Shown: positions 11,971-61,479 of the stretch, piece after piece
Numbering within the stretch: position 1 is the stretch's first letter
Layout: every line of letters starts with the position of its first letter
Notes under the pieces: model-generated
Seen by the model: only the letters and a program-made list of their open reading frames with translations
Told to the model about the DNA's origin: nothing
Database searches by the model: none
Position numbers and translations under genes: made by a program
DNA from: a virus
Taxonomy: Duplodnaviria; Heunggongvirae; Uroviricota; Caudoviricetes
Virus record (IMG/VR): IMGVR_UViG_2622736468_000003
Direction: 5' to 3' (one strand)
DNA length: 64,000 nucleotides

Positions 11971-12555
11971 ATGACCACTTTTACAAAAGAGCAGTTAATC
12001 AGTCATGTTAGTGAAAATGTAAAGGCGATGAAATTTGCAGTAAAACAGACAGCATTCAAAAATTCTCTCGAGGCAATTGAGTTGGATTTAGCACTGGCCC
12101 TTGTTGCTCAGGCTTCGCTGGAAGCAGAGCCCGTGCTTTATATGAATCGATTTACCGGAAAGACATTCTCACTGGAAGAGCAACCTGGTGCTGATAAGGA
12201 ACCGGAAATATACGTGCCGCTATATGCTGCCCCGCCAGACAGCGCCGCCATGCTTCAGGCTGGAAACTTTCGGGAAAAGAAGGGTTCGTCAACCAATAAT
12301 TTTCGGGAAATCTCGGAAACGTCAACCAACCATCCGGTAACTCTGGATGGTTGGATAAGCTGTAGTGAGCGAATGCCGGATGACGGTCAGCACGTAATTA
12401 TTTTATGTGATGGCGCATTCGTTCTTTATGCGCAATATCGAGACGGTGAGTTTTTTGATGTAGTCCGTGATGGTGATGAATTTTTCGAAACACAGAGCCG
12501 CAATGTAACCGACTGGATGCCGCTACCAGAACCGCCGCAGGAGGTGCGCCAATGA
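11971..12555 (+). CDS. DUF551-like phage protein
   Basis: AAGGAG RBS; C-terminal module GNFREKKGSSTNNFREI...DGWISCSERMP...WMPLPEPP shared with ORF 57263..58207. Confidence 0.55.
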   Translation: MTTFTKEQLISHVSENVKAMKFAVKQTAFKNSLEAIELDLALALVAQASLEAEPVLYMNRFTGKTFSLEEQPGADKEPEIYVPLYAAPPDSAAMLQAGNFREKKGSSTNNFREISETSTNHPVTLDGWISCSERMPDDGQHVIILCDGAFVLYAQYRDGEFFDVVRDGDEFFETQSRNVTDWMPLPEPPQEVRQ

Positions 12556-12635
12556 TCTGGCCTGAAGCCTTTGCAATTACAGGCGTTGCTATAGCTATTG
12601 ATTTTTTAGTATATGTTATTTGTCGGTGGGGGTAA
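12552..12635 (+). CDS. putative 27-aa hydrophobic peptide
   Basis: ATG overlaps preceding stop (ATGA); MIWPEAFAITGVAIAIDFLVYVICRWG; below track size cut-off. Confidence 0.3.
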   Translation: MIWPEAFAITGVAIAIDFLVYVICRWG

Positions 12636-12670
12636 AAACGTTCGCCGGGATTAACACCAAAGGAGGGAAT

Positions 12671-12775
12671 ATGTCGGATGATATATCACTGGCAATGGAA
12701 GGTGCGCTGGCTGTTATTGCTGTTGTGGGCGTTTACTGCCTGGTTGTGTTTTTGATGGATCGACTAGGGAACTGA
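12671..12775 (+). CDS. putative 34-aa hydrophobic peptide
   Basis: AGGAGGG RBS 3 nt upstream of ATG; MSDDISLAMEGALAVIAVVGVYCLVVFLMDRLGN. Confidence 0.35.
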   Translation: MSDDISLAMEGALAVIAVVGVYCLVVFLMDRLGN

Positions 12776-13020
12776 ATTCATTACGATATGGGAATTCCCA
12801 TATCGGGTAAAAACGGTTTGCGGTAAAGCGAGAGTTAAGCAGAATTGCTGCGGGTGCTTGAGGCTGTCTGCCTCGGGCATGCCACCGTAAGGCAGACAGA
12901 GAAAAGCCCCAGTTAACATTACGCGTCCTGCAAGACGCCTAACATTAATCTGAGGCCAATTTCATGCTAGACACATGTAGGTTAGCCTCTTACGCGCCGA
13001 AAGGCAAGGAGAAGCAGGCT

Positions 13021-13176
13021 ATGAAGCAGCAAAAGGCGATGTTAGTCGCCCTGATCGTCATCTGTATTACCGTCGTAGTGACGGCACTGGTAACGAGGAA
13101 AGACCTCTGCGAGGTACGAATCCGAACCGGTCAGACGGAGGTTGCTGTCTTCACAGCTTACAAACCTGAGGAGTAA
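13021..13176 (+). CDS. hok: Hok/Gef-family type I toxin
   Basis: MKQQKAMLVALIVICITVVVTALVTRKDLCEVRIRTGQTEVAVFTAYKPEE; in-frame upstream extension from 12964 (mok-like). Confidence 0.8.
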   Translation: MKQQKAMLVALIVICITVVVTALVTRKDLCEVRIRTGQTEVAVFTAYKPEE

Positions 13177-13246
13177 GAGACCAGGCGAGGGAGAAATCCC
13201 TCGCCACCTCTGATGTGTCAGGCATCCTCAACGCACCCGCACTTAA

Positions 13247-13267
13247 CCCGCTTCGGCGGGTTTTTTC
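13247..13267 (+). terminator. rho-independent terminator after hok
   Basis: CCCGCTTCGGCGGG followed by TTTTTT. Confidence 0.6.
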
Positions 13268-13385
13268 ACGTACTGTGGTTGTGAATACGATTGGTATTAG
13301 GCTATGCTAACAACATTAGCCTGACTAATTTTGTATTGACTTGATTTTTGTTAAAGAACAGGACGGAGAAGTAAGGGTACACCCA

Positions 13386-13565
13386 ATGAGCTACGCACTA
13401 AAAAAACACCCGCGATTGACTATTCCCCCTCGCGATAAAAGCGTTGTGGCAGCTCCGCGCCCGGCTATCGATGAAAATTGCACTCATCGTGAGCAGGTGA
13501 AAAATGCTTTCGATTTCGGTTTTTCTCGTTACGAGAAGGCAATGGAAGAACTTTCAAAAGTGTAA
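13386..13565 (+). CDS. putative antitoxin (Phd position) for the downstream Doc-like toxin
   Basis: 59-aa ORF 10 nt upstream of the Doc-like gene; assignment by position only. Confidence 0.35.
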   Translation: MSYALKKHPRLTIPPRDKSVVAAPRPAIDENCTHREQVKNAFDFGFSRYEKAMEELSKV

Positions 13566-13583
13566 TGATGGGTATTGTGCTCT

Positions 13584-14069
13584 ATGGCTGAGATTGTTGA
13601 AGGAGTGCACTACCTTTCGTTTGATGATCTTACCGAAATTAATCGCCTTTTAATTGAGCTTCAAACACCAGATGAACCTGTTAGTGTGCTGAGTGTTGAT
13701 AATTTAAGTTCTTCTCAGTCTCGTCCCAGCATGGTTCGATGGTATGAACAGACTAATGACATGTTTGTACTGGCATCAGTATTGATTGAAAGTCTGATTC
13801 AGAATCATCCATTTGCTAATGCAAACAAACGAACAGCTATGATGGCTGGTTATGTCTTCTTGTTGTTGAATGGCTATGAGTTAACAGCACCAGGCGATGA
13901 AATCGTGGAAATGGCAGAGGGACTGGCCTGCAAAACCTATACTCGAGAAGATCTCGAGAACTGGTTGTGTTATTGGTCTCGTGCGTATGACAGCCGGGAA
14001 TTATGTAAAACAGGCGCAACTATTGTTTTGTATGAAACTATCAAGCTTAAAATAGAACAGCAAAACTAA
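13584..14069 (+). CDS. Doc/Fic-family toxin
   Basis: motif HPFANANKRTAMMA (Doc-type HxFxxxNKR). Confidence 0.7.
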   Translation: MAEIVEGVHYLSFDDLTEINRLLIELQTPDEPVSVLSVDNLSSSQSRPSMVRWYEQTNDMFVLASVLIESLIQNHPFANANKRTAMMAGYVFLLLNGYELTAPGDEIVEMAEGLACKTYTREDLENWLCYWSRAYDSRELCKTGATIVLYETIKLKIEQQN

Positions 14070-14119: not shown

Positions 14120-14437
14120 TCATGATATTACTTGGATCCCGTTTTTCTCTACGACTGAAAGAAGGCGAAGAGCGGCACCTCCCGGCCGTTTTACACCACG
14201 TTCCCAGTCTGATATCAGGTTTTTACTGACGTTGAGGTATCTGGCAAAAACAGGTTGAGACAGATGCTCTCGTTCGCGCAGTGCACGGATCCTTTCCGGA
14301 GACATTACCGGCGCTGGCTGGAGACAAGTTTCATCGAATTCTCGCATAGTCTGTTTCGTTACTGCGCCGATATCATGAAGCGATTCCATCATTTCATGTA
14401 CGGATGCAAGCGCATCACTGCGGTAATTTTTACTCAT
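14120..14437 (-). CDS. HTH (XRE-type) antitoxin, HigA-like
   Basis: 105 aa; HTH segment LSQPVFARYLNVSKNLISDWERG; directly downstream of the toxin gene. Confidence 0.65.
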   Translation of the reverse strand: MSKNYRSDALASVHEMMESLHDIGAVTKQTMREFDETCLQPAPVMSPERIRALREREHLSQPVFARYLNVSKNLISDWERGVKRPGGAALRLLSVVEKNGIQVIS

Positions 14438-14491
14438 TGGGTACCTCCGTAAACTGACCCTGTAGAATCAGTTGTGCCAGTTGTTCATCTG

Positions 14492-14800
14492 TTAGATTGA
14501 GTACGTGAGGAGCCCCTTCCGAAATGCACTTTCCTCAGTAGCGGTTATATTTTCACGTTCATTTTTTGCGTATGCATATACGAAAAAGGCCCTTGTGCCG
14601 ACGCGATAGAAAATGATTGTGCGATAACCGCCAGATTTGCCGCCACCGACTCGTGGCAGACGTTGCTTGATAACGCCGTTACCCAGGTTTGCTGAGATAA
14701 GCCCGTTATCAGCCTGTTTAACAATTTCGCGCAGTGACTGGTCGGATATTTTGTTTTTGTGTGCAAATCGCTCAAACCAGGCGTTTTTAAAAATGCGCAT
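14492..14800 (-). CDS. RelE/ParE-superfamily toxin, HigB-like
   Basis: 102 aa; pattern DNGLISANLGNGVIKQRLPRVGGGKSGGYRTIIFYR...FFVYAYAKNERENI; toxin-first gene order. Confidence 0.65.
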   Translation of the reverse strand: MRIFKNAWFERFAHKNKISDQSLREIVKQADNGLISANLGNGVIKQRLPRVGGGKSGGYRTIIFYRVGTRAFFVYAYAKNERENITATEESAFRKGLLTYSI

Positions 14801-15145
14801 TTTTTTGTTCCGTTATTAATGTATAACACATAGTATTACATTGCGTAGGGATCTGCAATGCCATCAGTTTGACAACGTCGCGTATCCGGGATTATATTCA
14901 TCGCACGCCAGCAAAATCTGGCGTCGGGATTAGGAACCCCGGATAGAAACCGCGACAGAGACACGCCGCGAGCGTGTTTTTTATTGTCGTATGCACACGC
15001 ACATCTGAATTATGGTGGGGCGTATAGGGGAGCTGAAAAGCTCGCCGGTTGGTTTCCCGGTAGTTCCTAACCCTGTACGTCTCGCCACCCGATGATTAGG
15101 AACCTGACGGTGGTGATAGTTTAGAAACCACTCGAGGGCGTCATT

Positions 15146-18782: not shown

Positions 18783-19267
18783 GTATCCGTTCAACGGGAA
18801 TGTTACATACCTCACAATTAAGTCAGTTGAATGTTGTCTGCCCGGATGAGAATTTGTTAGAAAAAACTGCATGGTGAATCCCCCTGAGCGGAGGGGCGAC
18901 TGGTGACGGTATAATCTCTGATTATCAAAACGAGAATGACGCGGGTTTAGTGGCACCGGGCTGAACTCACCGGGAGGCACCCGGCACCATGCAATGGCAC
19001 ATAGCGCCACTCTCCAGCCCCTCTCCGGAGGGGCTTTCTTATGGACAAAAAAGCCCGCGCTGGGAGACGCGGGCGGCAAGGAATAAACAATGAAACGTGA
19101 AGTAATATTTCAGCTGGCGAATAATACCCCATAGTAATCACTCTGCGCAACTGCGCGACCTTTTTCGAATTGCGGGCTGTAGTCTCCCTTCTGCCATTGT
19201 CCTGTAACTTCCGGACTTCAGCCCGCTCCTTATTTTACTCACAATATTATCCCGGCCGGGAGGATTC

Positions 19268-20885: not shown

Positions 20886-21212
20886 ATGACTAAAAATACT
20901 CGTTTTTCCCCCGAAGTCCGTCAACGGGCAGTCCGTATGGTTCTGGAAAGTCAGAGCGAATATGACTCACAATGGGCGACAATTTGTTCCATTGCTCCAA
21001 AGATTGGCTGTACGCCGGAGACTCTGCGTGTCTGGGTTCGCCAGCATGAGCGGGATACCGGGGGCGGTGATGGAGGGCTCACCACCGCTGAACGTCAGCG
21101 TCTGAAAGAGCTGGAGCGTGAAAATCGTGAACTGCGCCGCAGTAACGATATCCTTCGCCAGGCTTCCGCTTATTTTGCGAAGGCGGAGTTCGACCGCCTC
21201 TGGAAAAAATGA
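20886..21212 (+). CDS. IS629 OrfA
   Basis: 108-aa HTH/leucine-zipper ORF typical of IS3-family orfA. Confidence 0.8.
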
Positions 21213-22099
21213 TGCCACTGCTGGATAAGCTGCGTGAGCAGTACGGGGTCGGACCGCTATGCAGCGAACTGCATATTGCCCCGTCAACGTATTACCACTG
21301 TCAGCAACAGCGACATCATCCGGATAAACGCAGTGCCCGTGCGCAGCGCGATGACTGGCTGAAGAAAGAGATACAGCGCGTATACGATGAAAATCACAAG
21401 GTATACGGTGTGCGTAAAGTCTGGCGTCAGTTGTTACGGGAAGGTATCAGAGTGGCCAGATGCACTGTGGCACGTCTCATGGCGGTTATGGGACTTGCCG
21501 GTGTTCTCCGGGGTAAAAAGGTCCGTACGACCATCAGCCGGAAAGCCGTTGCCGCAGGCGACCGCGTAAACCGTCAGTTCGTGGCAGAACGACCTGACCA
21601 GCTGTGGGTGGCTGATTTTACTTACGTCAGCACATGGCAGGGCTTCGTCTATGTGGCGTTCATCATTGATGTGTTTGCCGGATACATCGTGGGGTGGCGG
21701 GTCTCATCGTCCATGGAAACGACATTCGTGCTGGATGCACTGGAGCAGGCGTTATGGGCCCGTCGACCGTCCGGCACGGTCCATCACAGTGATAAAGGTT
21801 CTCAGTATGTATCGCTGGCCTACACACAGCGGCTTAAGGAAGCCGGATTACTGGCATCAACAGGAAGTACAGGCGACTCGTATGACAACGCGATGGCGGA
21901 GAGCATCAATGGTCTTTACAAAGCGGAGGTAATACACCGTAAGAGCTGGAAAAACCGGACAGAAGTGGAGCTGGCCACACTCACGTGGGTGGACTGGTAT
22001 AACAATCGACGATTGCTGGAAAGGCTGGGCCATACTCCTCCGGCAGAAGCAGAAAAAGCTTATTATGCTTCCATCGGAAACGATGATCTGGCAGCCTGA
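21209..22099 (+). CDS. IS629 OrfB (DDE transposase)
   Basis: 296 aa; overlaps orfA as in IS3-family elements. Confidence 0.8.
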
Positions 22100-57176: not shown

Positions 57177-57262
57177 ACTATTTTACCCCCAGCGGCAAAT
57201 CGCAAAAACAATCAGTGCGATCGAAATGGCAGCCACTACAATTGCAAATGCTTCAGGCTAGG

Positions 57263-58207
57263 TCATTGGCGTACCTCCTTCGGCGGTTCTGGTAGCGGCA
57301 TCCAGTGGGTTACTTCTTTGAGATGCAGGTCTTCGCCATCACCGTCATCCCAAGTGGGATTGCCATCATTAAACCAGTCGCCATATACGCCGACCTGAGT
57401 GTTGGGGATGCTTGGTGGGTAGTTGTTTTTAAAGTCAGCTGCTAACACATAGTATTGTCGCTCTCCCATTTCTGGCATTCGATCACTACAGCTTATCCAA
57501 CCATCCGGAGTTACCGGAACTGGCGGAACGGCTGTTTGCTCTCGAACGTCATTAGTCGCTATCGGTTCTGCTGCCAACTGACTGGCATATTTGTTAATGG
57601 TAACGATAAGCTCTTGCTCAGCCTCATCCAGACAATCACCGATACCTCGCCTGTCACCGTCAAAATCATCGAAATCGGCACGAATCCTGGCAACCTTCAG
57701 GATTGCGGACAACACCTCACTAGGAATTGCCGGATAGTTGGTTGACGTTTCCGCGATTTCCCGAAAATTATTGGTTGACGAATTCTTGTTTTCCCGAAAG
57801 TTTCCGGACTGAAGCATGGCGGCGCGGCAGGCGTTCCATATTTCGGCAGCAATATCGCGCTCGCTATCGGTTAATTTGTACGTGGAAACATAGCCAGAGA
57901 GCATTTCTACGTTTTCCGGAGTTGCTTCTTCCGGCACTACCGGCGCTGGAGGGGCGGCGTAAATGCCCTCTATCACTAAATGTTTGCGCTCAAAATCATC
58001 TGGCTCTCGATGATATACGTAACTCCAATCACCAAGGTTATCATTGCGCCTGCAACGGAAACCTATCGGCTCGGCTTCCAGCGCTGCCAGAGCAATTCGT
58101 GCCAGTTCTTCCGCTTCTTCTGCTGGCAGTACAACGTTGCTACCAGGTCCGTATGTTTCGCGCCACTGCTGGATTGTCAGCAGGCGTTCTTTGGTAATAG
58201 TGGTCAT
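57263..58207 (-). CDS. DUF551-like phage protein (paralog of 11971..12555)
   Basis: shares GNFRENKNSSTNNFREIAETSTN and DGWISCSDRMP...WMPLPEPPKEVRQ modules. Confidence 0.55.
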   Translation of the reverse strand: MTTITKERLLTIQQWRETYGPGSNVVLPAEEAEELARIALAALEAEPIGFRCRRNDNLGDWSYVYHREPDDFERKHLVIEGIYAAPPAPVVPEEATPENVEMLSGYVSTYKLTDSERDIAAEIWNACRAAMLQSGNFRENKNSSTNNFREIAETSTNYPAIPSEVLSAILKVARIRADFDDFDGDRRGIGDCLDEAEQELIVTINKYASQLAAEPIATNDVREQTAVPPVPVTPDGWISCSDRMPEMGERQYYVLAADFKNNYPPSIPNTQVGVYGDWFNDGNPTWDDGDGEDLHLKEVTHWMPLPEPPKEVRQ

Positions 58208-60527: not shown

Positions 60528-60776
60528 GATGACCTCCTTTGGCTTTTTTCGAGAAATGCCACCACAAGATGTGGTGCCGGGAGGCTCGAAACGGCCCAAA
60601 AGATACCGCGGACTTATTCCCCTTGCGGGTGTTGTATTCGTCGCCCTCCCGACATTGATCGGGGATGTGACCGCACACTGTGCTATCACTGAATAACAGG
60701 CATAAAAAATCCAACACTGACGGGGTTGGTTTAATCCGCTTTTGGGAGGTTTTCGAGGCCTCGGCGCGGAGTATAG

Positions 60777-61064: not shown

Positions 61065-61479
61065 GATGACCTCCTTATTTGTTTAGTTTATAACCGCCAG
61101 TTAGTAGCTGGCGGTCGGGTGTCAACTGAGCCAAATAAGAAGCTCTGGGCATATTCCCCTTGCGGGTGTTGTATTACGCCTCTCCACCCGACCTTTGTAC
61201 GGATGTAACTATGCCAAATTGCAGGCATAAAAAAGCCGCAAAGCTATCGGGTGCGGAGACCGCTTATTTGTTCAGTGCGATCAGTATGCGATAGCTCTGG
61301 CGGATTTGTCAAATCGTGCAGTAACATCCTTTTCTTCCTTGCCATTTCTCAATGATGACAAAGGGTGGATTCGGATTGGTATTGGGACAAAAGTGAGACA
61401 CACAAAGCTTTGCATCGGCTTACAAAGCTTTGCATGTTTTTCAATGTTGGGACGTGTGAGCGCAGAAATGACGGGCTAT

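Follow-up and report, generated by a model that had tools for sequence, protein, structure and literature searches.

A hok/mok/sok locus and two probable upstream microprotein genes in an Escherichia coli lambdoid prophage

Introduction

Two type I toxin–antitoxin (TA) systems, hokW-sokW of phages Sp5 and 933W and hok/sok of plasmid R1, are the closest described relatives of the locus studied here, a hok/mok/sok locus preceded by two short open reading frames (ORFs) of 27 and 34 codons in the 64,000-nucleotide (nt) IMG/VR virus record IMGVR_UViG_2622736468_000003 (Caudoviricetes; the whole stretch is hereafter called the window). hokW-sokW is a proven toxin/antitoxin pair that requires RNase III and Hfq, Hok toxicity and its neutralization by Sok having been shown experimentally for this homologous locus; Sok is lost upon prophage induction, and hokW-sokW hastens host killing and helps Sp5 release, doubling the release of Sp5 phage (PMC8621323). 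HokW-type toxins share only about 44% identity with R1 Hok (PMC8621323). Maintenance of the plasmid is the task of the R1 locus, whereas that in the window is carried by a prophage; the regulatory logic of the two is the same by folding, with a tac–fbi lock, ucb over the mok Shine–Dalgarno (SD) sequence and a switch upon truncation (PMC9841398).

The likeness to hokW-sokW (Sp5/933W; Takada et al., 2021, PMC8621323; GenBank AF125520) is closer. The architecture and the sizes of the parts are the same (mok, 70 amino acids [aa]; hok, 51 aa; Sok, 71 nt), and the promoter, leader and 3′ fold-back sequences align throughout. Both loci lie in lambdoid prophages, and a 27-codon ORF of the same family stands ahead of the 933W locus as well. 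The two loci differ in position, that of the window lying between the replication genes and the nin region and being read in the direction of pR, whereas that of 933W lies near attR. They also differ in the Sok 5′ tail together with the first mok codons, in the hok −10 hexamer (CAGAAT in the window, TAGAAT in 933W) and in the CCCGC/GCGGG terminator, which is retained in the window but replaced in 933W. Unlike in 933W, the 34-codon ORF and a palindrome are interposed in the window.

The window is an E. coli lambdoid, Stx-phage-like prophage, and the 1 kb of it that was queried is 100% identical to the chromosome of E. coli strain 23CRST047. The analysis reported here indicates that positions 12852–13266 very probably hold a complete, canonical hok/mok/sok locus of the hokW/hokD type and that the two upstream ORFs are genuine microprotein genes in their own right, belonging to the phage early region and not to the TA system.

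Results

The hok, mok and sok genes

The hok toxin gene (13021..13176, + strand; RefSeq WP_201795222.1) encodes 51 aa, and not the 52 given by an initial annotation made from the sequence alone, since the interval comprises 51 codons and a stop. Its product matched Pfam PF01848 (HOK_GEF; E=5.6e-24, 83.9 bits against a cut-off of 22) and PHROG 251, 'MokW-like host killing' (E=3e-32), and was 84% identical to HokW of phage 933W. As in other Hok/Gef toxins, the protein is about 50 aa long and has an N-terminal transmembrane helix and the conserved Cys.

The in-frame upstream extension that the initial annotation had likened to mok was found in the ORF list as a 70-aa frame (12964..13176, +) that shares the hok stop codon and is homologous to the annotated mokW of 933W. 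Its ATG is kept in five aligned loci and it overlaps hok and has an SD of its own (GAGG, 12952–12955), hok being presumably coupled to it in translation. In plasmid R1, mok is read in a different frame from hok, whereas in the window the two are in frame. The first five mok codons (12964–12978; alignment A2, columns 190–215), are complementary to the Sok 5′ tail; among the aligned loci, no other part of the otherwise highly conserved hok locus varies as much, and variation in these codons and the Sok 5′ tail could prevent cross-talk among Sok–hok pairs.

The Sok RNA, which the initial annotation had left undelimited, can be placed by its sequence at 12972→12902 on the minus strand. This putative 71-nt RNA lies over the mok SD and start codon, and 63 of its 71 positions agree with sokW as annotated in 933W; the mismatches fall mainly in the 5′ tail. 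In its predicted fold (−32.9 kcal/mol, z = −6.2), a free single-stranded 5′ tail leads into a long hairpin, and the RNA ends in a U tail. The Sok promoter was read from the sequence (12979..13007, −), with a −35 element TTGCCT (13007→13002), a 17-nt spacer and a −10 element TAACCT (12984→12979); it fell below the threshold of a consensus promoter scan, and the two hexamers are the same in 121 of 129 related loci. The locus would hence have a cis antisense Sok of about the length usual in the family (65–70 nt), with a promoter and a terminator hairpin of its own. The features named in the initial annotation were all located where it had placed them when the sequence and the ORFs were checked, and its reading of the locus as hok/mok/sok was fully supported by Pfam, Rfam, folding and the sokW alignment.

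The hok mRNA and its predicted switch

A covariance-model search, suggested along with the initial annotation as a check of the locus, matched Rfam RF01794 (sok/hok-leader) over the full model length at 12852–13026 on the plus strand, with 116.9 bits well above the gathering score of 59. Together with folding, this match delimits a full-length hok mRNA of 415 nt (12852..13266, +), in which the following elements were assigned from 5′ to 3′, all on the plus strand: tac (12852–12863), ucb (12904–12910), the mok SD GAGG, dcb (12985–12989), the hok SD (13006–13011) and fbi (13226–13238).

The minimum free energy (MFE) fold of the full-length mRNA had an energy of −178.3 kcal/mol (z = −7.3). The result showed 12 predicted pairs between tac and fbi (12852–12863 with 13226–13238), and the mok SD was paired with CCCC of ucb (12907–12910). 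When the 3′ 44 nt were removed (12852–13222), tac re-paired with ucb AAGCCCC (12904–12910) and the mok SD with dcb GCCUC (12985–12989) in the MFE fold, which is predicted and not structure-probed. This refolding matches the closed-to-open switch described for R1 hok (PMC9841398). The initial annotation had held that a leader lacking the conserved fold-back elements would mark a degenerate locus; none of the four elements (tac, fbi, ucb and dcb) is missing, and their pairing is that of plasmid R1 hok.

The terminator proposed for hok also proved to be real. It consists of CCCGC-TTCG-GCGGG and a run of six T (13247..13266, +), that is, CCCGCTTCGGCGGG at 13247–13260 followed by T6 at 13261–13266, and its hairpin forms in the hok mRNA fold. 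A simple terminator scan missed it, probably since the scan extends the stem into the T run. The likeness among the aligned loci stops just past this terminator. A sub-threshold match to isrK (Rfam, 31 bits) was also seen in the hok 3′-untranslated region (13185–13266).

The mechanism of the module has been established for plasmid R1 hok and for hokW, and we infer it for the window from sequence and folding. The stable hok mRNA would be silent while tac at its 5′ end pairs with fbi at its 3′ end and ucb sequesters the mok ribosome-binding site. Slow trimming of the 3′ end would take off fbi, after which tac would pair with ucb and expose the mok start region. The short-lived 71-nt Sok would bind to this region, stop the translation of mok and hence that of the coupled hok, and direct cleavage by RNase III. 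Once Sok is gone, for instance upon prophage induction, Hok would be made, enter the inner membrane and damage it, aiding host killing and phage release.

The hok promoter

Alignment with hokW and other loci placed the hok promoter at 12818..12845 (+), with a −35 element TTGCGG (12818–12823), a 16-nt spacer and a −10 element CAGAAT (12840–12845), and transcription would start at 12852. The promoter was too weak to be reported by the consensus scan. Of 146 related loci, 134 have TAGAAT as the −10 element and only four, the window included, have CAGAAT. In sigma-70 promoters, a change at the first −10 position should weaken the promoter. This rare T-to-C substitution speaks against a fully active locus, and hok may be poorly transcribed from its own promoter here.

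The hok locus of this prophage could accordingly be a silent copy in decay, as most hok loci of the E. coli K-12 chromosome are. Copies are plentiful: the 1-kb query matched in 4774 of 5426 complete E. coli genomes, mostly via its hok part, with a median of two and a maximum of 11 such places per genome, and with five hok-like places in the strain of the window the present copy may be redundant. We nevertheless regard a silent copy as unlikely, given that hok and mok are intact with both SD sequences in place, that tac, fbi, ucb, dcb and the terminator are intact as well, that the Sok promoter has the majority form and that no insertion sequence interrupts the locus. Moreover, the locus lies in the sense orientation in the early rightward operon, and read-through upon induction could still supply hok mRNA.

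The 27-codon ORF

The ORF at 12552..12635 (+; MIWPEAFAITGVAIAIDFLVYVICRWG) was assessed by its homologues, its ratio of non-synonymous to synonymous polymorphism (pN/pS) and its hydropathy. Its ATG overlaps the TGA of the upstream gene (ATGA), and an AGGAGG SD lies 7 nt upstream (12539–12544), within the last codons of that gene. The upstream gene (11971..12555, +) encodes an Ea22-like protein with a C-terminal DUF551 domain (RefSeq of the identical sequence; Pfam DUF551, E=1.4e-20). The peptide has a hydrophobic stretch, predicted to be a transmembrane helix, at residues 6–24, with an acidic residue before it and Arg25 after it, and by the positive-inside rule it is probably a single-pass peptide with the N-terminus out and the C-terminus in.

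The initial annotation had described both small ORFs as unannotated and had suggested that they were small proteins missed by size cut-offs. Both statements hold for the 27-codon ORF and fail for the 34-codon ORF, which is annotated (RefSeq WP_001278450.1) and has been reported as translated under the name XECs145. RefSeq has no annotation for the 27-codon ORF at this locus, and the records of 933W, the Stx1 phage and POCJ13 lack one as well; at 27 aa the ORF is below the 30-aa limit of the ribosome-profiling study of strain Sakai discussed below. Peptides identical to its product occur sporadically in GenBank as 'hypothetical' or 'bacteriophage' proteins. Neither small peptide is present in the supplements of the Enterobacteriaceae microproteome survey.

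Homologues of the 27-codon ORF were found in 92 phage records by tblastn, and a peptide-pattern scan of IMG/VR gave 469 loci. A degenerate DNA pattern, run against one genome per species, found the ORF in Escherichia and Shigella genomes and in two very short contigs with E. coli phage sequence that are labelled Xanthomonas and Acinetobacter; three further hits were due to chance. The contigs labelled Xanthomonas pisi (L097, 431 nt) and Acinetobacter idrijaensis (L102, 369 nt) and the record of Actinobacillus phage vB_Apl-pPE4 (L010) contain the 27-codon ORF and hok sequences of E. coli phages, the peptides of the first two being identical to variants known from E. coli phages; all three are probably contaminating contigs or entries with a mis-assigned host.

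An arbitrary sample of 120 IMG/VR loci was examined, for which the search pattern had ended at codon 26. The results showed that all 120 encode a hydrophobic peptide with a stop at codon 28 (33 distinct peptides) and that the ATGA overlap is kept in all 120, with an SD-like sequence inside the last codons of the preceding gene. The preceding proteins differ, only five of nine examined having DUF551, and a strict partnership of the ORF with DUF551 was rejected on the strength of the four upstream proteins that lack it. A 'Rosetta-stone' fusion of DUF551 with the peptide, which a clustering of database proteins had suggested, was rejected too: the 121-aa DUF551 proteins lack the peptide, and partial or frameshifted entries account for the clustering. 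There is no slippery site at which programmed frameshifting could link up the upstream gene or fuse the two small ORFs, and this reading was rejected as well. The downstream flanks also vary. Among the 112 sampled loci with enough flanking sequence, 56 have hok downstream (13 of them with the 34-codon ORF in between), and the other 56 have unrelated DNA such as xis-int and no adjacent hok. The conserved block extends from about 20 nt before the ATG to the stop codon, and from these limits and the varied flanks it follows that the ORF is an independent gene module in a mosaic phage genome. A functional tie of the small ORFs to hok is not borne out, the 27-codon ORF travelling with the 3′ end of the upstream gene and half of its loci having no hok beside them.

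The in-frame pN/pS over 64 distinct nucleotide versions was 0.32, while the other sense frames gave 1.05 and 1.62; over codons 7–23 alone, which the search pattern did not constrain, the values were 0.45 versus 0.72 and 1.32. Changes at third positions dominate (3222 versus 1512 and 1251), one variant has an in-frame 6-nt deletion, and the peptide motif and the hydrophobic character are retained down to a nucleotide identity of about 74%. The start, stop and length of the ORF are thus conserved and the frame is under purifying selection, as is to be expected of a gene.

Two observations tell against a coding function. One antisense frame over the ORF also had a low pN/pS (0.37), which is the mirror effect expected because wobble positions are shared; this frame has no start codon in the window and is open for 9–164 codons among the variants, and it is therefore not a conserved gene. 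In addition, nonsense copies exist, with TAG at codon 3 in four of the 120 loci and TGA at codon 26 in seven loci, and the gene is therefore dispensable. Two side observations touch on these points. A second copy of the family lies at 57186–57269 on the minus strand after another DUF551 gene (58207..57263, −), which it again overlaps by ATGA; its third codon is TAG, the conserved Gly11 is replaced by Val (MT*PEAFAIVVAAISIALIVFAICRWG), and the allele is that of Shigella phage POCJ13. This copy is probably a pseudogene. In the Stx1 phage record NC_004913.3 (L106, 201–950, minus), an annotated 249-aa ORF, B39, lies on the strand opposite to the 27-codon ORF, the Ea-like gene and the region upstream of hok; the annotation of B39 is probably spurious because the open antisense frame is not conserved in length.

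If the 27-codon ORF were not a gene, its conservation would have to reflect constraint on DNA or RNA, such as a recombination linker between phage modules or the upstream promoter DNA of hok, and the open frame would be incidental. Its absence from the RefSeq annotation, the overlap of its 3′ end with the box that, in loci of the 933W type, makes up the upstream portion of the hok promoter, the nonsense variants and the equally low pN/pS of the antisense frame all point that way. We consider this quite improbable, however, as half of the copies keep the same 27-codon length and stop position without hok downstream, the motif and hydrophobicity persist while identity drops to about 74%, third-position changes dominate, the start codon, SD and ATGA overlap are preserved across unrelated upstream genes, and the indel observed is a multiple of three.

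With the ORF taken as a gene, its product would be translated by termination–reinitiation coupling through the ATGA from whichever gene precedes it, yielding a single-pass membrane peptide with the conserved motif M-x-W-P-[ED]-A ... Y-x-I-C-R-W-G. The family is conserved, essentially uncharacterized and skipped by annotation pipelines. A more specific proposal is put forward only tentatively, and we hold it to be doubtful: the ORF would represent an unnamed, conserved family of early-region membrane microproteins of Escherichia/Shigella temperate phages, including 933W and Sp5, that is always ATGA-coupled to a preceding Ea22-like gene and may have a specific inner-membrane role in early lytic development, be it modulation of a host membrane protein, superinfection exclusion or joint action with the adjacent Hok.

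The 34-codon ORF

The second ORF (12671..12775, +; MSDDISLAMEGALAVIAVVGVYCLVVFLMDRLGN) lies inside XECs145, which Hücker et al. (2017, PMC5597208) described in E. coli O157:H7 Sakai as a 'novel intergenic gene' with a product predicted for the inner membrane. The ATG of the window ORF is preceded, at a distance of 3 nt, by a strong SD, AAGGAGGG (12660–12667), and residues 11–29 of the peptide are predicted to form a single transmembrane helix. In Sakai grown in LB, XECs145 had an RNA RPKM (reads per kilobase per million) of 79.1, a ribosome-footprint RPKM of 346.1, a ribosome coverage value (RCV) of 4.35 and a coverage of 0.99 (PMC5597208). XECs145 comprises 54 residues, the C-terminal part being identical to the product of the window ORF at 34 of 34 positions; its start was set at a rare codon, ATA, which adds 20 residues to the 34-aa form, because the authors chose whichever start codon lay farthest upstream and admitted rare ones (PMC5597208). 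The conserved AAGGAGGG–ATG arrangement and the RefSeq annotation point to the 34-aa form rather than to the 54-residue form as the probable product.

Homologues were sought with a 47-aa, in-frame extended query. The result showed 48 clusters, of which all the named ones are from E. coli; 47 of the 48 are at least 86% identical to the query and one is 79% identical, consistent with a family restricted to E. coli. Roughly a thousand contigs carry the 34-aa form itself. The 14 distinct nucleotide versions of the ORF differ by 14 synonymous and 13 non-synonymous distinct changes, an excess of synonymous changes over the 27% expected (binomial p=0.0046), whereas the other two frames gave 4:22 and 5:22; the amino-acid replacements are conservative. 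As a reservation, the XECs145 signal could be inflated by multi-copy mapping, O157 genomes holding several near-identical copies. The 34-codon ORF is a real gene, annotated and already reported as translated. With its own strong SD, it would yield a single-pass peptide that is translated even in uninduced lysogens.

Both small peptides contain a 19-residue window with a mean Kyte–Doolittle hydropathy above 2.3. Such hydrophobicity was found in only five of the 193 ATG-initiated ORFs of 25–40 aa in the window, and these two are the only ones of the five with an SD; both also show conservation of the coding type. That they are additional type I toxins, each checked by an antisense RNA of its own, in line with the suggestion of the initial annotation that they might be additional membrane-active peptides, is very improbable: they are short, single-helix hydrophobic peptides adjoining a type I toxin, and two sigma-70-like sites on the minus strand (12695→12668 and 12636→12608) could in principle drive antisense RNAs, but such sites are at chance level (two found against 1.3 ± 1.2 in shuffles), no antisense partner was found opposite the ORFs as an Rfam family or a terminator-like site, the peptides have no match in PADLOC, Pfam or NCBIfam, the ATGA coupling of the 27-codon ORF in an operon is the layout of an ordinary co-translated gene and not of a separately repressed toxin, and the 34-codon ORF is unlikely to encode a potent toxin because it is highly translated in growing, uninduced lysogens (RCV 4.35).

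Boxes and palindrome upstream of hok

The region between the small ORFs and hok contains a short box, GGGTAAAAACG(G)TT(C/T)GC(C/G)GG, twice. The left, degenerate copy (12630..12649, +) overlaps the stop codon of the 27-codon ORF and matches 12805–12815 exactly at 11 of 11 positions; the promoter copy lies at 12805–12823, and the 34-codon ORF and the palindrome stand between the two. Loci of the 933W type have the box TAAAAACGGTTTGCGG immediately after the stop codon of the 27-codon ORF; the box contains the hok −35 element, and hok transcription starts 41 nt past that stop codon. The palindrome of the window, CGATATGGGAATTCCCATATCG, is a perfect one of 22 bp (12784..12805, no strand assigned), and as RNA it would form a 9-bp hairpin with no U tract after it. 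PPompW prophages likewise have the palindrome and the box ahead of hok, in their case following the paa adhesin gene, and of the 34-codon ORF only the last few bases are present. By this comparison, the palindrome belongs to one version of the hok upstream region.

Two other origins of this arrangement were considered and rejected. The 34-codon ORF is not a diverged tandem duplicate of the 27-codon ORF, as 375 of 500 shuffles scored as well, and the ORF and palindrome do not form a mobile cassette with a target duplication, since PPompW has the palindrome and the box without the ORF and the exact repeat is only 11 nt long. We conclude from the sequences compared that the arrangement probably reflects ordinary mosaic recombination at short shared sequences, and neither a mobile cassette nor a duplication. 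Four database proteins of 70–74 aa (P0003, P0007, P0008 and P0009) fuse the 27-aa and 34-aa ORFs through single-base indels at different homopolymer runs (T6 at 12602–12607, G5 at 12628–12632); these fusions are most likely sequencing errors or sporadic mutants.

Neighbouring genes and other elements in the window

The hok locus and the small ORFs have the replication genes on one side and the nin region on the other, and they are read in the same direction as the early rightward operon. The gene order in RefSeq is a cI-like repressor, cII, replication genes, DUF1627, DUF977, DUF551, the 34-aa hypothetical protein, the Hok/Gef toxin, a 59-aa protein, a Doc toxin, a helix–turn–helix (HTH)/RelE pair, an antirepressor, NinB, NinE ... 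Q. The 59-aa protein (PHROG 2208) and the Doc/Fic toxin (TIGR01550, E=1.3e-35) follow hok at 13386–14069 (+), and an HTH protein (14120–14437) and a RelE/ParE toxin (about 14485–14800) lie on the minus strand. hok, the Doc/Fic pair and the HTH/RelE pair make up a cluster of three TA systems between the replication and nin genes.

Several RNA elements were matched in Rfam elsewhere in the window. Matches to isrK (69.2 bits) and the C4 antisense RNA (66 bits) lie side by side at 14905–15092, just upstream of an antirepressor-like gene with a P22AR C-terminal domain. Matches above the gathering score were obtained for the small RNA (sRNA) STnc100 at 18841–19046 (165 bits), for an ALIL pseudoknot at 21167–21283 (120 bits) and for two copies of sRNA-Xcc1 on the minus strand (60568–60653 and 61105–61193). 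An insertion sequence is probably present at the pseudoknot site, because the ALIL pseudoknot is a frameshift element of the IS3 family.

Discussion

The hok/sok module of the window is an ordinary one that is already known, because it is annotated in RefSeq and its toxin has 84% protein identity to that of hokW-sokW, a close relative that has been tested experimentally. It is one more copy of a known system and adds nothing new to it.

The two small peptides upstream of it are most likely small accessory single-pass inner-membrane proteins of the phage, a role that we infer only. They resemble the general class of small single-pass inner-membrane proteins of E. coli and its phages in size (27–34 aa), in having one helix with charged flanks and in being omitted from annotation. 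They differ from that class in having no significant similarity to any entry in Pfam, NCBIfam, PADLOC or PDB, and only weak matches in PHROG.

The rare −10 element of the window provides a small natural experiment on whether a prophage hok needs its own promoter. The 27-codon gene is a clean example of a conserved phage microprotein gene dropped by current pipelines, in the medically relevant Stx phages. As this gene lies directly upstream of hokW in Sp5/933W, deletions or clones of 'hokW-sokW' could unknowingly remove or include it.

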